The position numbers and the translations under genes were made by a program. The notes below the pieces were generated by a model that did no database searches, was not told where the DNA came from, and saw only the letters and a program-made list of their open reading frames with translations. This document shows, piece after piece, positions 91 through 6,270 of a stretch of DNA of 12,766 bases (position 1 is its first letter; every line of letters starts with the position of its first letter). The stretch lies in IMG/VR virus record IMGVR_UViG_3300007747_000033. The stretch is one strand, 5' to 3'. This DNA comes from a virus. Taxonomy: Duplodnaviria; Heunggongvirae; Uroviricota; Caudoviricetes.

Positions 91-273
91 GTGTTTAATT
101 TCAGCAGAATTGCGGACTATTACGCTCACGCCCCCTCTGAAATTCAGTGTTTTTTCGAGGAGTCGGCGCTGGTGATCATTGATTATCAGCAGGCTATTGA
201 AAATGGATTTGTCCGGATGACGCAGCGCATGGTGGAGATCATGCATGGTGGTGAGGAGGAGGAATATGCGTGA
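91..273 (+). pseudogene. Possible 3' remnant of a gene truncated by the IS insertion; unknown product with acidic C-terminus (GGEEEEYA)
   Basis: The reading frame is open from position 1 through the IS end to the stop at 271-273; the first start-like codon (GTG 91) is the first codon after the IS boundary. No recognisable motif. Confidence 0.2.
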
Positions 274-1198
274 TGATTTTTGCGCCTTTATTCTGACTCA
301 CGGGCGACCGGACAAAGTTCTGACTTACCGGACGTTGCGTCGTGCTGGCTATACCGGGAAAATTTTTATCGTTGTTGATGATGAAGATAAGACACGGCAT
401 CAGTACATGGCTGAATTTGGGGAACAGGTGCTGGTGTTTTCCAAAGCCGATATCGCCAGTCGTTTTGACGAAGCCGATAATTTCTGTGACCGCCGCTCAA
501 TTTTTTACGCCCGTAATGCCTGTTTCGACCTGGCAAAACTGGTCGGGTGTAAATACTTCATTCAGCTCGATGATGATTATCACGAGTTCCAGTTTCGGGT
601 GGATCGCAACTATGACCAGGCCTATTTTCCGATAAGGAAACTGGATGCGATCCTTTCTGAAATGCTGGCGTACTACGAATCAATACCTGCTCTTTCCATC
701 GCTATGTCGCAGGGCGGGGATTTTCTTGGTGACAATGGCGGCCATGCTTCGTGGGTGAAACGCAAGGCAATGAACAGCTTTATCTGTTCGGTTGAACGAC
801 CGTTCTCATTCATGGGGCGCATTAACGAGGATGTGAATACGTACACGAATCTCGGTCGCTGTGGTGAATTGTTTATGACGATCGGTGCTGTCCAGTTAGG
901 GCAGAAACAGACGCAGAAAAACAGCGGCGGAATGACCGAGCTGTATCTGGATTCCGGAACCTACGTTAAAAGTTTTTACTCCGTCATGTATGCGCCGTCG
1001 TGCGTAAAAATCTCACTGATGGGTGCCAGCCATAAACGCATTCACCATCAGGTCACCTGGAACAACGCTGCAGTAAAAATCCTTCACGAAAAATACAGGA
1101 AGAAGACACCCTGCATATCAATGGGGGTGACAAATGATTCCGTATTCGAAAGTCGAGTCTCTGGCAGCGTGCCGGATGACTGCACAACAAATCGCTGA
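266..1198 (+). CDS. Hypothetical phage protein, putative GT-A-fold nucleotide-sugar transferase (DxD-type)
   Basis: ORF 245..1198 in the track; preferred start ATG 266 just downstream of the GAGGAGGAGG run (253-262) (ATG 245 is an alternative). Linear motif order typical of GT-A glycosyltransferases: AFILTHGRP strand, FIVVDDED about 25 residues later, then hydrophobic strand plus DxD (YFIQLDDDY) about 95 residues in. Motif-pattern call only. Confidence 0.5.
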   Translation: MRDDFCAFILTHGRPDKVLTYRTLRRAGYTGKIFIVVDDEDKTRHQYMAEFGEQVLVFSKADIASRFDEADNFCDRRSIFYARNACFDLAKLVGCKYFIQLDDDYHEFQFRVDRNYDQAYFPIRKLDAILSEMLAYYESIPALSIAMSQGGDFLGDNGGHASWVKRKAMNSFICSVERPFSFMGRINEDVNTYTNLGRCGELFMTIGAVQLGQKQTQKNSGGMTELYLDSGTYVKSFYSVMYAPSCVKISLMGASHKRIHHQVTWNNAAVKILHEKYRKKTPCISMGVTNDSVFESRVSGSVPDDCTTNR

Positions 1199-1385
1199 CG
1201 TTCTGGATGTTGATCTGAACCGACTGAAAGAAAATCGGGAAGCAATGACAGATTTTTATGCGGCCATCCGTAAGGGCAGAGCGAAAGGTGAAGCCGAGTT
1301 ACGAGCGGCATTGTTTAAGCTTGCCAGAAAAGGGGATGCCTTTGCTCTGCGCGAACTACTCAGGGTGGATAAAAATCAGGACTAA
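1134..1385 (+). CDS. Small HTH-like protein, possibly a DNA-packaging or small-terminase-associated domain
   Basis: ORF in track; ATG 1134 preceded by GGGGGTGA (ATG 1176 is an alternative). Overlaps the upstream gene by 65 nt in another frame. Contains TAQQIADVLDVD and GRAKGEAELRAALFKLARKGD, which I associate (from memory, unverified) with phage small-terminase N-terminal domains. Confidence 0.45.
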   Translation: MIPYSKVESLAACRMTAQQIADVLDVDLNRLKENREAMTDFYAAIRKGRAKGEAELRAALFKLARKGDAFALRELLRVDKNQD

Positions 1386-1388
1386 CTG

Positions 1389-2483
1389 ATGAGCAGACCG
1401 GACTGGGGGGCGTTGCAGCAGGAGTATATTGCTGAATACACCCGCTCCGGTATATCTCCGGTGGCATGGTGTGAAGCAAGGGGACTGAATTACGCAACAG
1501 CCCGTCGTTACATCAAAAAAACTCCGAAAAATGCGCAGACAGAAATGTGCAAAACTGCGCAAAAAAGTGCGCAGAAAAAATCTGCGCAGACTGCACAAAA
1601 GCGGAACGAAAAATCTCAGGAAAAAAAGCCAGTATTCGATGCGGGCCTGAATGAGGGCGACGCGGAGGAATTTTCGTTCTGTCCCGATGAATTCGGCATT
1701 TCTGACCAGCAGGCTAAGTTTGCGATGCTTGTTGCTCAGGGTAAAAAGCCGACAGAGGCGTACCGACTAGCCGGTTATGAGGGGCAAGGTGCGACAGCTA
1801 ATAGCAACGCCAGTCGTATGCTTAGAAATGCCAGGGTTTTTCGCGCTATCAGCTACTTCCGCAATCAGTACCAGAAACGCTATACCGCAGACCTGGATTT
1901 ACTAGTGAGTCAGTTGATGGCCATTGTCCTGGCCGACCCCAATCAGCTTGCACAATTTCGCCGTGTTAACTGCCGTTATTGCTGGGGCGAGAATCATCTC
2001 TACCAGTGGCGCGATATAGCAGAATTCGACAAGGCAGCGGCGCAGGCTTCCAGAGATGGCAAACCCGAACCGGAATATGGAGGCCTCGGCTTTGTTGATA
2101 ACGCCATACCCAATCCGGACTGCCCGAAGTGCTGCGGTGAGGGAACGGGACAGCTTTATATGGCTGATACCACTCTGCTTGATGGGGATGCGCGGCAATT
2201 ATATGCAGGGGCAAAATTCGGAAAATTCGGCGTTGAGATCCTGCTGGAGGATAAGGCTGCCGCCCGGCGTGAATTGTTGCGTTTGCTTTCTGCTGGCGGG
2301 GCTTTATGTGCAGATAAGCGGCTACAGGAACTGGAAATTGAACGGCGCAGAATGGAAAACCAGAAGCTGCGCAAAGAGATCGAAACGGTGGAAGATAATG
2401 AACATCCCCAGCCTGTGGCGATCAATATTAATGTGGTTGATGCCAGAGTAAGGAGTGATGAAGATGATCTCTCCGACGCTTAA
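1389..2483 (+). CDS. Terminase small subunit (Terminase_2-like core) with N-terminal extension, low-complexity linker and Cys-rich insert
   Basis: ATG 1389 after AGGA (1378-1381). Core region ISDQQAKFAMLVAQGKKPTEAYRLAGYEGQGATANSNASRMLRNARVFRAI fits the small-terminase HTH consensus (L..KQ..F..EY....NAT.AA..AGYS...A.....LL..P.V...I). Lies immediately upstream of the large terminase. Also has CRYC...CPKCC and a C-terminal coiled-coil-like region. Confidence 0.7.
   Translation: MSRPDWGALQQEYIAEYTRSGISPVAWCEARGLNYATARRYIKKTPKNAQTEMCKTAQKSAQKKSAQTAQKRNEKSQEKKPVFDAGLNEGDAEEFSFCPDEFGISDQQAKFAMLVAQGKKPTEAYRLAGYEGQGATANSNASRMLRNARVFRAISYFRNQYQKRYTADLDLLVSQLMAIVLADPNQLAQFRRVNCRYCWGENHLYQWRDIAEFDKAAAQASRDGKPEPEYGGLGFVDNAIPNPDCPKCCGEGTGQLYMADTTLLDGDARQLYAGAKFGKFGVEILLEDKAAARRELLRLLSAGGALCADKRLQELEIERRRMENQKLRKEIETVEDNEHPQPVAININVVDARVRSDEDDLSDA
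1532..1597. repeat. Cluster of six TG(C/T)(G/A)CA hexamers (four exact TGCGCA) at 9-15 bp spacing inside the small-terminase gene
   Basis: TGCGCA at 1532, 1556, 1568, 1583; TGTGCA at 1546; TGCACA at 1592; separated by A-tracts. Coincides with the (S/T)AQK peptide repeats of the encoded linker. Confidence 0.6.
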
Positions 2484-3765
2484 TGTGCCTCAGGCGCGAT
2501 TTCTTTCAATGCCCCATAAATTTAAAGCCTATATTGCTGGTTTTGGCTCGGGCAAAACATGGGTTGGGTGTGGCGGCATATGCAAGGGGATTTGGGAGCA
2601 TCCAGGTATAAATCAGGGATATTTTGCGCCAACGTATCCCCAAATTCGCGATATTTTTTACCCTACAGTGGAAGAAGTTGCTGCTGACTGGGGATTGAAC
2701 GTAAAAATTAATGAGGGAAATAAAGAGGTTCACTTTTATTACGGACGCCAGTATCGGGGAACCACTATCTGCAGATCGATGGAGAAGCCACAAACGATCG
2801 TCGGTTTCAAAATTGGTAATGCGTTGGTGGATGAACTGGACATTTTGCCGAAGGAAAAAGCCAGAACGGCGTGGCGCAAGATAATTGCACGTATGCGTTA
2901 TAAGATTGATGGACTTCGCAACGGTATTGACGTTACAACCACGCCGGAAGGATTCAAATTTGTCTACGAGCAGTTTGTTAAAGCCGTGCGTGAAAAAACA
3001 GAGCTGGCCTCACTGTATGGTCTGGTGCAGGCATCTACTTTCGATAATGAAAAGAACCTGCCAGCAGATTACATTCCTTCGCTTCTTGAATCATACCCTC
3101 CAGAGCTGATTAAAGCCTATCTTCGAGGACAGTTTACTAACCTGACAAGTGGTACTGTTTACCATCAGTTTGACCGGAAACTGAATAATTGCGAAGAAGT
3201 GGAGCAGCCAGGGGAGCCGATTTATATTGGGATGGATTTTAACGTTGGAAAGATGGCGGGAATCGTCCATGTGCTGCGTTTGGGGCTTCCATGTGCGGTA
3301 ACTGAAATCATCAATGCCTACGATACGCCGGATATGATCCGCATCATTAAAGAACGCTTCTGGCTGTATGATGGGAATGATTACCGGAAAGTGAGGGAAA
3401 TTTATATTTATCCAGATGCTTCCGGGGATTCCAGAAAATCAAGTAACGCAAGTACGACGGATATAGCCCAGCTTAAGCAGGCTGGTTTTAACGTTGTGGT
3501 GAACAGCTCGAACCCGCCAGTAAAAGATCGCGTTAACTCAATGAATGCAATGTTCTGCAATGCCAATGGTGAGCGTCGCTATAAAGTTAATGTGAAGCGT
3601 TGCCCGTTATATGCCGAATCTCTGGAGCAACAGGTCTGGGATGAGAAGGGGGAGCCTGATAAAAAATCTGGCAATGATCACCCGAATGATGCCGGAGGTT
3701 ATTTCATCGTTAAGCAATTCCCTATTGTCAAACCGACCGGAAGAGTCACATCACTTCGGATTTAA
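2464..3765 (+). CDS. Terminase large subunit
   Basis: ORF 2455..3765; preferred start ATG 2464, 8 nt after AGGAG (2451-2455); GTG 2455 and ATG 2458 are alternatives. Walker A-like AGFGSGKT near the N-terminus, and C-terminal acidic nuclease-type motifs (IGMDFN, YPDASG, HPNDAGGYF). Overlaps the terS stop. Confidence 0.85.
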   Translation: MISPTLNVPQARFLSMPHKFKAYIAGFGSGKTWVGCGGICKGIWEHPGINQGYFAPTYPQIRDIFYPTVEEVAADWGLNVKINEGNKEVHFYYGRQYRGTTICRSMEKPQTIVGFKIGNALVDELDILPKEKARTAWRKIIARMRYKIDGLRNGIDVTTTPEGFKFVYEQFVKAVREKTELASLYGLVQASTFDNEKNLPADYIPSLLESYPPELIKAYLRGQFTNLTSGTVYHQFDRKLNNCEEVEQPGEPIYIGMDFNVGKMAGIVHVLRLGLPCAVTEIINAYDTPDMIRIIKERFWLYDGNDYRKVREIYIYPDASGDSRKSSNASTTDIAQLKQAGFNVVVNSSNPPVKDRVNSMNAMFCNANGERRYKVNVKRCPLYAESLEQQVWDEKGEPDKKSGNDHPNDAGGYFIVKQFPIVKPTGRVTSLRI

Positions 3766-3767
3766 TT

Positions 3768-5174
3768 ATGGCTGATATATCAACACCCAACCTCGACTAT
3801 AACGATATGCTGGAGGCGTGGGATATTAACGACGCACTGATGGGCGGTACGCTTGAAATGCGCAGGCAGGGGGAAAATTATCTCCCAAAATGGCCTAACG
3901 AAGATGAAGACGCTTATAAAAAACGCCTGTCTGTGGCTACGCTACTTCCTGTGTATGAAGAAAGCATCAAGCAAAATATTGGGCGCATATTTGCAGAGCC
4001 GACAGTATTGAGTGAGGAAACGCCGGCAAAAATCAGGGAATATGCAGAAAATATCGACATGGAGGGGAGCCGACTGGATGTGTGGGCGCAGCAATTTTTC
4101 AGCCTCGCATTTCAGTATGGTGTGGCACATGCGCTGGTGGACTATCCACGAACGGATATGAAAGAGATTCGGACAAAAGCCGATGAAAACGCGGCCGGTG
4201 GTCGTCCGTACGTTACGATGCTGAATCCACGCCAGGTTATTGGATGGAAATCGAAAGTTGAAAAAGGGAAAGTTGTTCTCACTGATTTGCGTATAAAAGA
4301 GGTCATCATTATTGATGGTGATGATTTCGGGCAGAAGAAGGTGGAGCAGATCCGCCATATTATGCCCCGTCGAGTTGAAATTTATCGACGTAGCGAAGGC
4401 ACTAATGGCGAATCTGTCTGGACGCTTCATGAGTCATGGAATACCAGCCGTGATGATATTCCTCTGGTAACACTGTACACGAAGAAAACAGGATTTATGC
4501 GTGGTACACCGCCATTGCTTAATCTTGGCTTGCTGAATATCAAGCACTGGCAAAGCCAGAGCGAGCAGGACAATATTCTTCATGTTGCCCGCGTTCCATT
4601 GCTGGTGGCCTACGGGCTGGACAGGAATGAAGAACTGACGGTTGGTGCATCCACCGCTACGATTTTTGAGGACAGAACAAAAAATGGCCTCGAATATGTT
4701 GAACATAGTGGCGCAGCGATAGAATCTGGCGAAACATCACTTGAGAAGCTGGAAAATCAGATGCGTCATGCCGGCGCTAAACTTCTGCGTGCTGAAAATA
4801 CATCCACCAAATCTGTTGATCAGACTAATGAAGAGCGAATGCAGGAAAACTCGCCGCTTTATACAATGGCGAACTCCCTCGAAGATGCCCTCGATAATAT
4901 TCTCCAGATAATGGCGGAATGGATCGGAGAGAGTTGCGGTGGCAATGTGGATGTGCGCACTGAACTGGATGTATCTGCCCAGGTGTTTGACTCATCCTCC
5001 GCGCTGGCTGTTCAGTCATTGCGTCAGGGCGGTGATATACGTCAGATTGATGCGGTTCGGGTGTTGCAGGCGTTGAAATTTATCGATCAGGATTCCCGTC
5101 CAGAGGAAGTGATCGATGAATTAAAAAATCAGAGTGTAATGCTGATGGAAATCAATGATGCAAACCGTGAATGA
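3768..5174 (+). CDS. Portal protein
   Basis: 468-aa ORF starting 2 nt after the terL stop (translational coupling). Position between large terminase and Mu-F-like minor head protein, and size, are typical of a portal. Assigned by synteny. Confidence 0.65.
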   Translation: MADISTPNLDYNDMLEAWDINDALMGGTLEMRRQGENYLPKWPNEDEDAYKKRLSVATLLPVYEESIKQNIGRIFAEPTVLSEETPAKIREYAENIDMEGSRLDVWAQQFFSLAFQYGVAHALVDYPRTDMKEIRTKADENAAGGRPYVTMLNPRQVIGWKSKVEKGKVVLTDLRIKEVIIIDGDDFGQKKVEQIRHIMPRRVEIYRRSEGTNGESVWTLHESWNTSRDDIPLVTLYTKKTGFMRGTPPLLNLGLLNIKHWQSQSEQDNILHVARVPLLVAYGLDRNEELTVGASTATIFEDRTKNGLEYVEHSGAAIESGETSLEKLENQMRHAGAKLLRAENTSTKSVDQTNEERMQENSPLYTMANSLEDALDNILQIMAEWIGESCGGNVDVRTELDVSAQVFDSSSALAVQSLRQGGDIRQIDAVRVLQALKFIDQDSRPEEVIDELKNQSVMLMEINDANRE

Positions 5175-6270
5175 ACGGCTGCGTGATGAATCAATTGCTC
5201 ATGCAGTCTGGATATCCCGCTATAGCACTGGCGTGGCTGCCAGAATGGTGAAAATACTGAATGACAGCGATGCGGAACTTACTGCTCGCCTGCTGATAGC
5301 ACTGGACAGCCTCGATCCAGGTAGTTTTACCGTTAAGCGCCTGGAGTCACTTCTGGCGAGCGTCAGAGAGGTTAACCGCACTGCTATTAACAGCATGTTT
5401 ACCAGTCTCTCCGGAGAGCTGAACGAGCTGGCAATTTATGAGGCTGGTTATCAGTTAAGTCTGTTTGATTCTATGCTACCTGATTTTGTTGCTGATGTTC
5501 ACCCTCTGGTTGGTATCTCTCCTGATGCACTTTATGCCGCTGCAATGGCGCGACCATTCCAGGGACGACTGCTCAGTGAGTGGGCCTCAGATCTTGAAGC
5601 GGATCGGCTCAGACGCATAACAAATACAGTGCGTCAGGGTTTTTTGCTGGGGGATACCAATGAGCAGATCGCAAGAAAAATTCGGGGACATGTCAGTAAG
5701 GGATTTCAGGATGGTGCATTGCAGATGAGCCGGGCTAATGCGGCCAGCATTGCAAAAACAGCGGTTGGACATCTTGCTGCTACTGCCCGTGAGAGTTTTG
5801 CCAGCGCGAATAATGATTTGATTAAGGGTAAGCAATGGTTATCAACGCTTGATAATCGTACTACGCCACAATGTCGAATCAGGGATCGCCTCAAATATAC
5901 GCTGAATAATAAACCTGTAGGTCACAGCGTGCCTTATTTGCAGGGGCCGGGAAAAATTCATTTCTGCTGCCGCTCAACGGAAACGTTCATTCTGAAATCA
6001 GCGAAGGAACTGGGTATTGATGTTCGCGATATTTCCCCGGCTGAGCGGGCCAGCATGGATGGCGTGGTGGCCGGAGATACAACCTACAGGGAATGGTTTT
6101 TGCGTCAGCCTTACACCAGACAAAAACAGATTGTGGGGGAAACCCGAGCAAAGCTGATTCGGGATGGTGGTATGTCGCCAGATGAATTTTACACCGATAA
6201 AGGCGAATGGCTGACGCTGAAGCAGCTCCGTGAGCGTGATGCACAGGTATTCAGAAAAGCAGGGATTTAA
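5155..6270 (+). CDS. Minor head / head morphogenesis protein (Phage Mu F / SPP1 gp7-like)
   Basis: 371-aa ORF overlapping the portal stop by 20 nt. Contains WLSTLDNRTTPQCR, resembling the conserved D.R..P.C signature of the Mu-F/gp7 family. Canonical position after the portal. Confidence 0.65.
   Translation: MMQTVNERLRDESIAHAVWISRYSTGVAARMVKILNDSDAELTARLLIALDSLDPGSFTVKRLESLLASVREVNRTAINSMFTSLSGELNELAIYEAGYQLSLFDSMLPDFVADVHPLVGISPDALYAAAMARPFQGRLLSEWASDLEADRLRRITNTVRQGFLLGDTNEQIARKIRGHVSKGFQDGALQMSRANAASIAKTAVGHLAATARESFASANNDLIKGKQWLSTLDNRTTPQCRIRDRLKYTLNNKPVGHSVPYLQGPGKIHFCCRSTETFILKSAKELGIDVRDISPAERASMDGVVAGDTTYREWFLRQPYTRQKQIVGETRAKLIRDGGMSPDEFYTDKGEWLTLKQLRERDAQVFRKAGI

Follow-up and report, generated by a model that had tools for sequence, protein, structure and literature searches.

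A long phage small terminase with a conserved four-cysteine insertion and an in-gene array of palindromic hexamers as candidate pac elements

The gene considered here, terS, encodes an unusually long small terminase subunit (TerS) and is located at positions 1389..2483 of a 12,766-nucleotide (nt) stretch of Caudoviricetes DNA, IMG/VR record IMGVR_UViG_3300007747_000033, the whole of which is called the window below. Two features of this gene have been analysed: an insertion domain with four cysteines (Cys4) and an array of TGCGCA hexamers, or boxes, within the coding DNA, a candidate for the packaging recognition element (pac) of the phage.

The 364-amino-acid (aa) open reading frame (ORF) matches Pfam Terminase_2 (PF03592) with 35.1 bits against a cutoff of 26.1 (E=2.4e-8; aa 122-321, profile positions 19-129 of 141) and phrog_51, “terminase small subunit”, over its full length (E=2.4e-76). 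The annotated TerS of several Escherichia coli phages (ON4706xx) is 100% identical to the window protein, and Salmonella phage SPF_0923 shows 99.7% DNA identity to the window terS. The gene has been identified in 896 of 5,426 complete E. coli genomes, where it is labelled terminase small subunit. An origin of the ORF as a two-gene fusion or a mis-call was considered and rejected, the full-length gene being carried by 852 E. coli genomes and many phages. The protein has an estimated mass of about 40 kDa (from 364 aa), roughly twice the size of the structurally known phage TerS protomers of 15-21 kDa (PMC9611059). The 3' end of terS overlaps the start of the co-oriented terL gene, which is followed by genes for a DUF4055 portal, a Mu-F-like protein, a scaffold and a P22-type coat protein. 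In phage vB_EcoS-666R9, lysis genes and trkG are located upstream of terS and mark the element as Rac-like lambdoid. The ORF is best explained as the functional TerS of a lambdoid prophage of the Rac-like kind, which is most likely a headful (pac) packager. The description of the ORF as an unusually long small terminase, given in an initial annotation made from the letters alone, is thus upheld by profile matches, gene order and size. The gene, its modules and its partner gene are as follows (position in the window, strand, feature):

1389..2483, plus strand: terS ORF, small terminase subunit, 364 aa with an ATG start
1389..1523, plus strand: accessory N-terminal three-helix helix-turn-helix (HTH; aa 1-45) with the putative recognition helix YATARRYIKK (aa 35-44), from the AlphaFold2 model and homology to PacA
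1524..1688, plus strand: lysine-rich disordered linker with the “AQK” stretch (aa 46-100), of low model confidence and variable among homologues
1532..1597, no strand: palindromic hexamer box array, candidate pac recognition elements; TGCGCA at 1532, 1556, 1568 and 1583, with degenerate boxes TGTGCA at 1546 and TGCACA at 1592
1698..1883, plus strand: Terminase_2 / SF6-type HTH DNA-binding domain (aa ~104-165), from the SF6 profile match and a predicted local distance difference test score (pLDDT) of 94-98
1893..1937, plus strand: first helix of the oligomerisation core (aa 169-183)
1938..2201, plus strand: Cys4 insertion domain of ~88 aa (aa 184-271), comprising strand 188-193, CRYCWG, helix 210-223, a GGxG loop, CPKCCGEG, strand 253-258 and helix 266-271
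1971..1982, plus strand: first putative metal-ligand knuckle, C195-R-Y-C198 (family CRxCxG), CRYC at aa 195-198, from its invariance
2121..2132, plus strand: second putative knuckle, C245-P-K-C248 (family CPxCxGxG), from its invariance; C249 (2133-2135) lies outside
2202..2288, plus strand: beta-hairpin (aa 272-286) and start of the second core helix, SF6-like, from AlphaFold2 strands 272-278 and 281-286 and the SF6 profile
2253..2480, plus strand: long C-terminal helix (aa 289-336) and disordered acidic tail (aa 337-364), from AlphaFold2 and a phrog_29114 match at aa 258-364
2455..3765, plus strand: TerL, large terminase and partner gene (Terminase_6N E=3.7e-33, Terminase_6C E=3.4e-10; annotated start at 2464)

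The linker contains the stretch KTAQKSAQKKSAQTAQK (aa 55-71). It is modelled with pLDDT 42-58 in 10-residue blocks across aa 51-90 and below 50 for aa 61-88, and its length and sequence vary among homologues. The DNA that encodes the AQK stretch (nt 1527-1600) has a 12- and 36-bp periodicity according to Tandem Repeats Finder, and its boxes are set 9-15 bp apart by A-rich spacers. Half of the eight TGCGCA sites of the whole 12.7-kb window are contained within 57 bp of this DNA, the next site after the array being at 2368. When the same peptide was resampled synonymously with the codon usage of the window, four or more TGCGCA sites were obtained in only 30 of 200,000 sequences (P=1.5e-4).

The arrays of relatives have been read in the 150 nt 3' of the N-terminal domain, in terS genes and IMG/VR contigs that together gave 121 distinct gene 5' ends. 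Every relative of the R type, that is, with arginine at residue 39 of the N-terminal HTH, has 3-8 TGCGCA boxes at the same place, with spacing varying from 7 to 15 bp, at protein identities of 36-59%; Klebsiella phage ST11-VIM1phi8.2 and E. coli phage PHB10 carry boxes at 36-40% overall identity. The flanking ~2.9 kb in the relatives has only 0-4 boxes. Over the 121 gene 5' ends the boxes are read in three reading frames: 206 in frame 2 as [ST]AQ, 42 in frame 1 as (M/V/L)R, and seven in frame 0 as CA. The C54 residue of the window protein is itself a mutated box (TGCGCA to TGTGCA), and relatives read “EMRK” there. Since the hexamer is kept in three frames and the codon choice is biased to keep the boxes, the array is a DNA-level object and not a protein feature; what is conserved is the hexamer, not the peptide, and the AQK stretch is the translation of a DNA array. 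The “low-complexity linker” of the initial annotation was, on both the frames and the resampling, a misreading. By analogy with phage P1, treated below, this array is probably the pac recognition element of the phage.

Several variants of the region deserve a separate mention. In P0011, whose protein is 95% identical, and in L062:1501-1767 the linker is read in another frame across the array (LRKMRRQKCAKLRKKCAEK), and then either returns to frame or stops at 88 aa. The runs of A6-A8 between the boxes are prone to frameshifts, and these variants could reflect sequencing errors, decay or real variation. In E. coli CUWW10 (NZ_CP182145, 1978354-1979211) terS is truncated by an IS1A element after nt 144-145, a point that coincides with the first TGCGCA box. 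An E. coli match limited to nt 1-145 of the gene, considered as a possible module swap at the first box, proved to be an IS1 insertion truncating the gene.

The N-terminal HTH preceding the array is modelled as three helices (6-20, 24-30 and 35-38) with pLDDT 87-95, and a search of NCBIfam with this domain gave only a sub-threshold IS66 TnpA-like match. It is missing from the TerS of phages F116, Bcep22, PEp14 and BcepB1A, and no comparable box array has been found in phrog_51 members that lack it. Where both elements are present, the type of box tracks HTH residue 39 in all 121 cases: arginine (ATARRYIKK) occurs in 49 of 49 genes with TGCGCA boxes, to which one gene with H39 is added, and lysine (A[ST]AKRYIK[VI]) in 71 of 71 genes with TGCGAA/TTCGCA boxes, these often forming the 12-bp palindrome TGCGAATTCGCA. 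Between the relatives L067 and L082 only four of 44 HTH residues are changed (H11D, A18D, R39K and K44V), yet every one of their boxes differs. Both HTH/box types have been identified on the Cys4 core (phrog_51) as well as on an unrelated “PGN..KHG” core (phrog_370), and the R-type module occurs in addition on a third core (phrog_32222).

A different N-terminal HTH (…LSLRDIGDKYGVTEGAIRKRAKKFDWVR) is encoded at gene nt ~125-250 in Klebsiella phages RCIP0098 and ST11-OXA48phi15.1, and is followed by five to seven copies of GTACGCA in mixed reading frames (GTQ or VRK). The presence of an array beside this second HTH type as well means that the HTH-plus-array arrangement is not tied to one HTH family; a single-sequence scan of IMG/VR for further examples of the second type gave no relatives. 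The terS of Rac-SA53 (KU052037, 24713-25741), annotated “gpOterS; fusion of two genes by deletion”, has lost the HTH and kept the Cys4 core. One of its boxes is still TGCGCA, and three are point-changed to TTCGCA, TGCGCT and TGCCCA. These changes are consistent with relaxed constraint, but exceed in no way the gene's overall divergence of ~10%.

The N-terminal domain has a counterpart of established function. It aligns with aa 3-41 of P1 PacA with an hhalign probability of 85% (E=6.4e-6; BLASTP E=0.004), and window aa 6-80 match phrog_1711 (E=3.8e-5), of which PacA itself is a member; on these sequence comparisons, the domain is homologous to the N-terminus of PacA. The pac site of P1 comprises 161 bp inside pacA, in which seven TGATCA/G hexamers (HEX4 and HEX3) are arranged around an integration host factor (IHF) site and the cleavage site, and synonymous recoding of the hexamers reduces the titre ~9-fold (PMC10028697). 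In the P1 record the hexamers are located at pacA nt 194-233 and 324-380, about 60-250 nt past the HTH-coding part and in two reading frames, with cleavage at nt ~276-285. P1 PacA and the window TerS are alike in that (i) both are long (397 and 364 aa), (ii) they share a homologous N-terminal HTH, (iii) they have an acidic C-terminal tail, and (iv) the coding DNA immediately 3' of the HTH part contains clustered 6-bp palindromic repeats in mixed frames. The rest of PacA is unrelated to the window TerS and has neither a Terminase_2 core nor a Cys4 insert.

The remainder of the protein was analysed with a family profile and with AlphaFold2 models, one of the full length built on a 108-sequence alignment and one of aa 165-300. 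The N-terminal extension and the HTH core named in the initial annotation are indeed present, and where it had a coiled-coil C-terminus a long C-terminal helix (aa 289-336) is modelled. The profile matches the SF6 TerS structure 3zqp (E=1.2e-16) in two stretches bracketing the insert: profile positions 5-85 correspond to SF6 G1P residues 21-102, covering the HTH and first core helix (stretch E=2.1e-13), and positions 181-217 to SF6 residues 117-153, covering a beta-strand and the second helix. From these two stretches it follows that query residues ~184-271 are an insertion of ~88 residues, replacing ~14 residues of SF6 (103-116). Matches to Pam5 TerS (5e-12) and to the isolated DNA-binding domain structures 4zc3 and 2cmp were also obtained.

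In the full-length model nearly every 10-residue block of aa 101-300 has pLDDT 94-98, with a single dip to 72 at aa 161-170, and aa 165-300 modelled alone reach pLDDT 96.5 and a predicted template modelling score (pTM) of 0.75. The modelled order within aa 165-336 is helix 169-181, strand 188-193, C195/C198, helix 210-223, GGxG loop, C245/C248, strand 253-258, helix 266-271, hairpin 272-286 and helix 289-336. A beta-strand, of pLDDT 96-98, thereby adjoins each CxxC knuckle, 188-193 before the first and 253-258 after the second, in what would be, if the model is correct, an arrangement as in zinc ribbons. Foldseek comparison of the full-length and the aa 165-300 model with the PDB gave nothing at E<=0.001; very short local similarities to the Q protein of phage 21 and to a small mitoribosomal-assembly chain fell short of significance and were set aside. 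A profile search with the insert, proposed at the outset, was equally unproductive: no relevant Pfam match was found for the isolated segments aa 1-102, 170-300 and 301-364 at E<=10, DnaJ_CXXCXGXG included, and a DnaJ-type finger was therefore dropped. The C-terminal region differs between family members. By analogy with its C-terminal position in other TerS (PMC9611059), the TerL-binding moiety is inferred to be the C-terminal helix with the acidic tail.

The two cysteine pairs are located where the initial annotation had placed them, CRYC at nt 1971-1982 and CPKCC at nt 2121-2135 (aa 245-249), with 46 residues separating C198 and C245. A search for relatives among 1.84 billion cluster representatives (50%-identity clusters) gave 1,772 at E<=1e-3, and 1,259 clusters match the whole protein at E<=1e-10. 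The alignment used for the cysteines comprises 108 homologues, 27-52% identical to the query apart from one near-identical sequence, with a mean column identity of 19%. Only eight of its columns are invariant: C195, R196, C198, G200, C245, C248, G250 and G252. Invariance of four cysteines at such a low mean identity indicates that the motif is more than chance. All four are found in 114 of the 130 representatives covering the region, the remaining 16 being frameshifted or chimeric gene calls, and hence in 114 of 114 intact representatives; the conservation in homologues, a check named in advance, is complete. The “four or five” cysteines first proposed are reduced to four, C195, C198, C245 and C248, while position 249 is variable (N, C, F, G, Y, R among others).

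The four cysteines are also common to the annotated TerS of F116, Bcep22, BcepB1A, PEp14 and Yersinia phage vB_YenM_29.18, in which C195, R196, C198 and G200 are likewise invariant. The motif consequently characterises a large family of TerS that is already annotated (phrog_51), and is no peculiarity of the window gene. The view that such cysteine pairs are unusual in a small terminase holds for solved structures and reviews, and fails by prevalence, given the 1,259 clusters. Zinc or cysteines in phage TerS are not mentioned in a 2022 TerS review (PMC9611059) or in a 2026 packaging review, zinc fingers being taken up there only for herpesvirus pUL28 and pUL56. The family has no solved structure, and a metal site in it is probable: from the conservation pattern, the four cysteines most likely hold the insertion domain together around one structural Zn2+.

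Taken together, these results are best read as a TerS of four modules, in which a P1-like pac-recognition HTH and its box array are fused to a Zn-stabilised SF6-type core; the probability of this reading is estimated at about 65%. The proposed course of events is as follows. Residues 104-183 and 272-300 would form an SF6/SPP1-type unit (HTH, then helix, beta-hairpin and helix) that assembles TerS into a ring, usually a nonamer in TerS of this type, with the Cys4 insertion domains placed, by topology, at its hairpin or “cap” end. The insert would have a structural or scaffolding role, its conserved arginines possibly in contact with the DNA backbone, and would not determine specificity; the Terminase_2 HTH would provide general DNA contact. 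The P1-type HTHs of the ring, each on a flexible basic tether of ~55 residues, would read the TGCGCA boxes as PacA reads the TGATCA hexamers of pacA; the irregular box spacing of 9-15 bp suits readers on flexible tethers. With HTHs bound to the boxes, the concatemer would be tagged within terS; TerL, brought in by the C-terminal helix and acidic tail (aa 289-364), would then make a nearby cut from which the headful series starts.

Several observations weigh against this four-module reading. The window has one box cluster (four perfect and two degenerate boxes), whereas P1 has two (4+3) flanking the cleavage site, plus an IHF site, for which the window was not searched; two clusters are present in the relatives L076 and L089. 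TGCGCA lacks the Dam site GATC that TGATCA/G of P1 carries. The HTH adjoins the boxes, so that the co-variation over 121 genes goes back to a small number of independent events and may be due to linkage. The boxes are self-complementary, and region 1515-1610 folds well as RNA (z = -5.0). No publication on the packaging start or pac of the window phage was found, and for the insert neither Pfam nor the Foldseek comparison with the PDB gave a significant match to a known zinc-binding fold.

The array admits two other explanations. The AQK stretch could be a mere flexible low-complexity linker generated by replication slippage, its boxes having no function of their own. Disorder in the model, variable length, tandem periodicity, slippage-prone homopolymer A runs and the existence of the frame-shifted variants P0011 and L062 are what this explanation would predict. 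It does not account for a hexamer kept in three reading frames across proteins 36-59% identical, for the outcome of the synonymous resampling, or for arrays in which all boxes switch together from TGCGCA to TGCGAA with one HTH residue, and hexamers in the homologous P1 module are the pac site by experiment (PMC10028697); slippage alone is accordingly regarded as highly improbable. Boxes acting as RNA or single-stranded DNA, through UGCGCA hairpins that tune terS translation or the TerS:TerL ratio, are quite unlikely, although slightly less so. The calculated fold of 1515-1610, at -29.8 kcal/mol, is well below the -16.4 +/- 2.7 of shuffled sequences, and the hairpins are flanked by A-rich runs. 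Nevertheless, a strong RNA fold is automatic for any set of palindromic boxes, and with anything from 3 to 8 boxes at spacings of 7-15 bp no pairing scheme is conserved. Taken singly, TGCGAA and GTACGCA boxes lack self-complementarity, Rfam gave no match to a known RNA family in the window, and the P1 precedent is a DNA site (PMC10028697).

Two further explanations concern the insert. The initial annotation had raised a contribution of the cysteine pairs to pac recognition, and the Cys4 element might indeed be a DNA-reading zinc ribbon: conserved basic residues surround the first knuckle (a six-sequence alignment keeps R191, R196 and R208 without exception, and R192 belongs to the family consensus), the insert lies by topology near the HTH side of the core, and packaging signals are bound by zinc fingers in herpesvirus pUL56/pUL28 (PMC9611059). 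A determinant of pac specificity should, however, vary, and the Cys4 insert is the most conserved part across phages of hosts as different as E. coli, Pseudomonas, Burkholderia, Erwinia and Yersinia, the lineage-specific variation residing in the N-terminal HTH and box module. With no match of the insert to known DNA-binding zinc ribbons either, such a role is unlikely, though it is the least implausible of the alternatives. A role of the four cysteines other than zinc binding, as disulfides, a rubredoxin-like iron site or an Fe-S centre, possibly redox-sensing, is very unlikely. The pattern CxxC(x)G...CPxC(x)G is as close to the knuckles of rubredoxin as to zinc knuckles of the DnaJ type, but the gene context suggests no redox chemistry, phage assembly proteins work in a reducing cytoplasm, which makes structural disulfides unlikely, and most single Cys4 sites with Gly-rich knuckles are structural Zn sites.

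A wider proposal, more tentative and held at a little under an even chance, is that a portable P1-like pac module, consisting of the HTH and its own hexamer sites in the linker-coding DNA, is present in many enterobacterial temperate phages and has been shuffled among at least three unrelated TerS cores, its boxes (TGCGCA, TGCGAA, YGATCA and GTACGCA) following the recognition helix, and that Cys4 is a new Zn-stabilised ring domain in a family of more than 1,000 clusters. The proposed carriers are Rac-like prophages (about 1 in 6 E. coli genomes), 933W-type Shiga toxin (Stx) phages, and Klebsiella and Yersinia phages.

Both the TerS family and the pac principle of P1 are already known. Neither the Cys4 insert nor an in-gene hexamer array of a phage TerS was found described in the literature searched, and three points appear to be undescribed so far: the Cys4 insertion as a conserved, structurally unmatched domain, the “linker” as a P1-like hexamer array, and the HTH-plus-boxes module shuffled among TerS cores with lineage-specific boxes. 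DNA recognition by pac-type small terminases is still called unanswered, in vitro binding being weak and largely sequence-independent (PMC9611059). The window TerS offers a testable case, with a tethered HTH, candidate sites that follow after a few dozen bases within the same gene, and the naturally occurring variants R39/TGCGCA versus K39/TGCGAA. If the proposal is true, pac specificity would become readable from sequence for common E. coli prophages and Stx phages, and the non-specific in vitro DNA binding by the ring-core HTHs of pac phages would be explained. If confirmed, it would bear on generalised and lateral transduction, on phagemids and on packaging-defective helper phages, as done for P1 by recoding of the hexamers. 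The Cys4 domain is of lesser importance than the box module.

Some neighbouring genes of the window are worth recording. A gene resembling a TET-associated glycosyltransferase (Pfam TAGT E=1.2e-34; phrog_842; ORF 245..1198) is located directly upstream of the packaging genes, and the partial ORF before it, ending at ~273, is ParB-like according to the annotation of phage ON470614. No TET/JBP partner is visible beside it within the window; the gene and its neighbour next to the terminase genes may form a DNA-modification module. Between the TAGT-like gene, whose end it overlaps, and terS lies a small ORF, 1134..1385 (1176..1385 in ON470614), which matches positions 145-218 of 319 of phrog_309 (“terminase small subunit”, E=8e-23) and may be what is left of another TerS, or else a small helical protein that binds DNA. 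At 5155..6270, the Mu-F-like gene for head morphogenesis (Pfam Phage_Mu_F, phrog_241) is named “NAD+--asparagine ADP-ribosyltransferase” in ON470614 and also matches longer PHROG profiles of 679-1195 positions, which suggests that its relatives carry extra C-terminal domains. Four 20-22 kb “complete genome” records (ON470581, ON470587, ON470585 and ON470602) all end 4,119 nt upstream of terS, which points to a common boundary, of assembly or of packaging, and not to full genomes.

Among the systems available for comparison, the G1P-type TerS of SF6 / SPP1 (Terminase_2; PDB 3zqp/3zqq/3zqm) has the same type of HTH as the window TerS and probably the same type of core. It differs in its size of 164 aa and in the lack of an N-terminal accessory HTH, of a linker with box array, and of cysteines. 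In phage lambda, a cos packager, the N-terminal winged HTH of gpNu1 reads several repeated cosB R elements; these repeats adjoin the gene of gpNu1 and lie outside the coding region. Sequence similarity of the window TerS to gpNu1 was not detected in this analysis. The herpesvirus subunits pUL28 and pUL56, terminase components with zinc fingers that bind packaging signals (PMC9611059), offer a functional parallel only, since they are non-homologous all-helical proteins of ~85 kDa without the ring-forming TerS fold.

The closest relatives of the core are the phrog_51 TerS of F116, phiC725A, Bcep22, BcepIL02, PEp14 and BcepB1A, which have the same Terminase_2 core and Cys4 insert with the four cysteines and glycines invariant. 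In contrast to the window TerS, they are only 259-271 aa long, possess neither the N-terminal HTH nor a box array, and carry other C-terminal tails. The F116-like phage phiC725A is a headful packager with a peak of read coverage at terS/terL (PMC5217972). The N-terminal module, on the other hand, has its counterpart in the TerS of the Stx phages 933W and VT2-Sakai (phrog_370), where the same kind of HTH, in a diverged form, is followed by an in-gene hexamer array. The core of this protein is of the PGN...KHG type, without a Cys4 insert, and its box sequence is a different one: at nt ~135-186 of the 933W gene (AF125520, 28775-29581) YGATCA is repeated four times with a 12-bp period and is read as IDHEIDHKTDHEIDH. 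No publication describing the 933W in-gene array as a pac site was found. The YGATCA boxes are the same hexamer, with its Dam site GATC, as the proven pac elements of P1, and on this sequence identity the array is a candidate pac site of the Stx phages.

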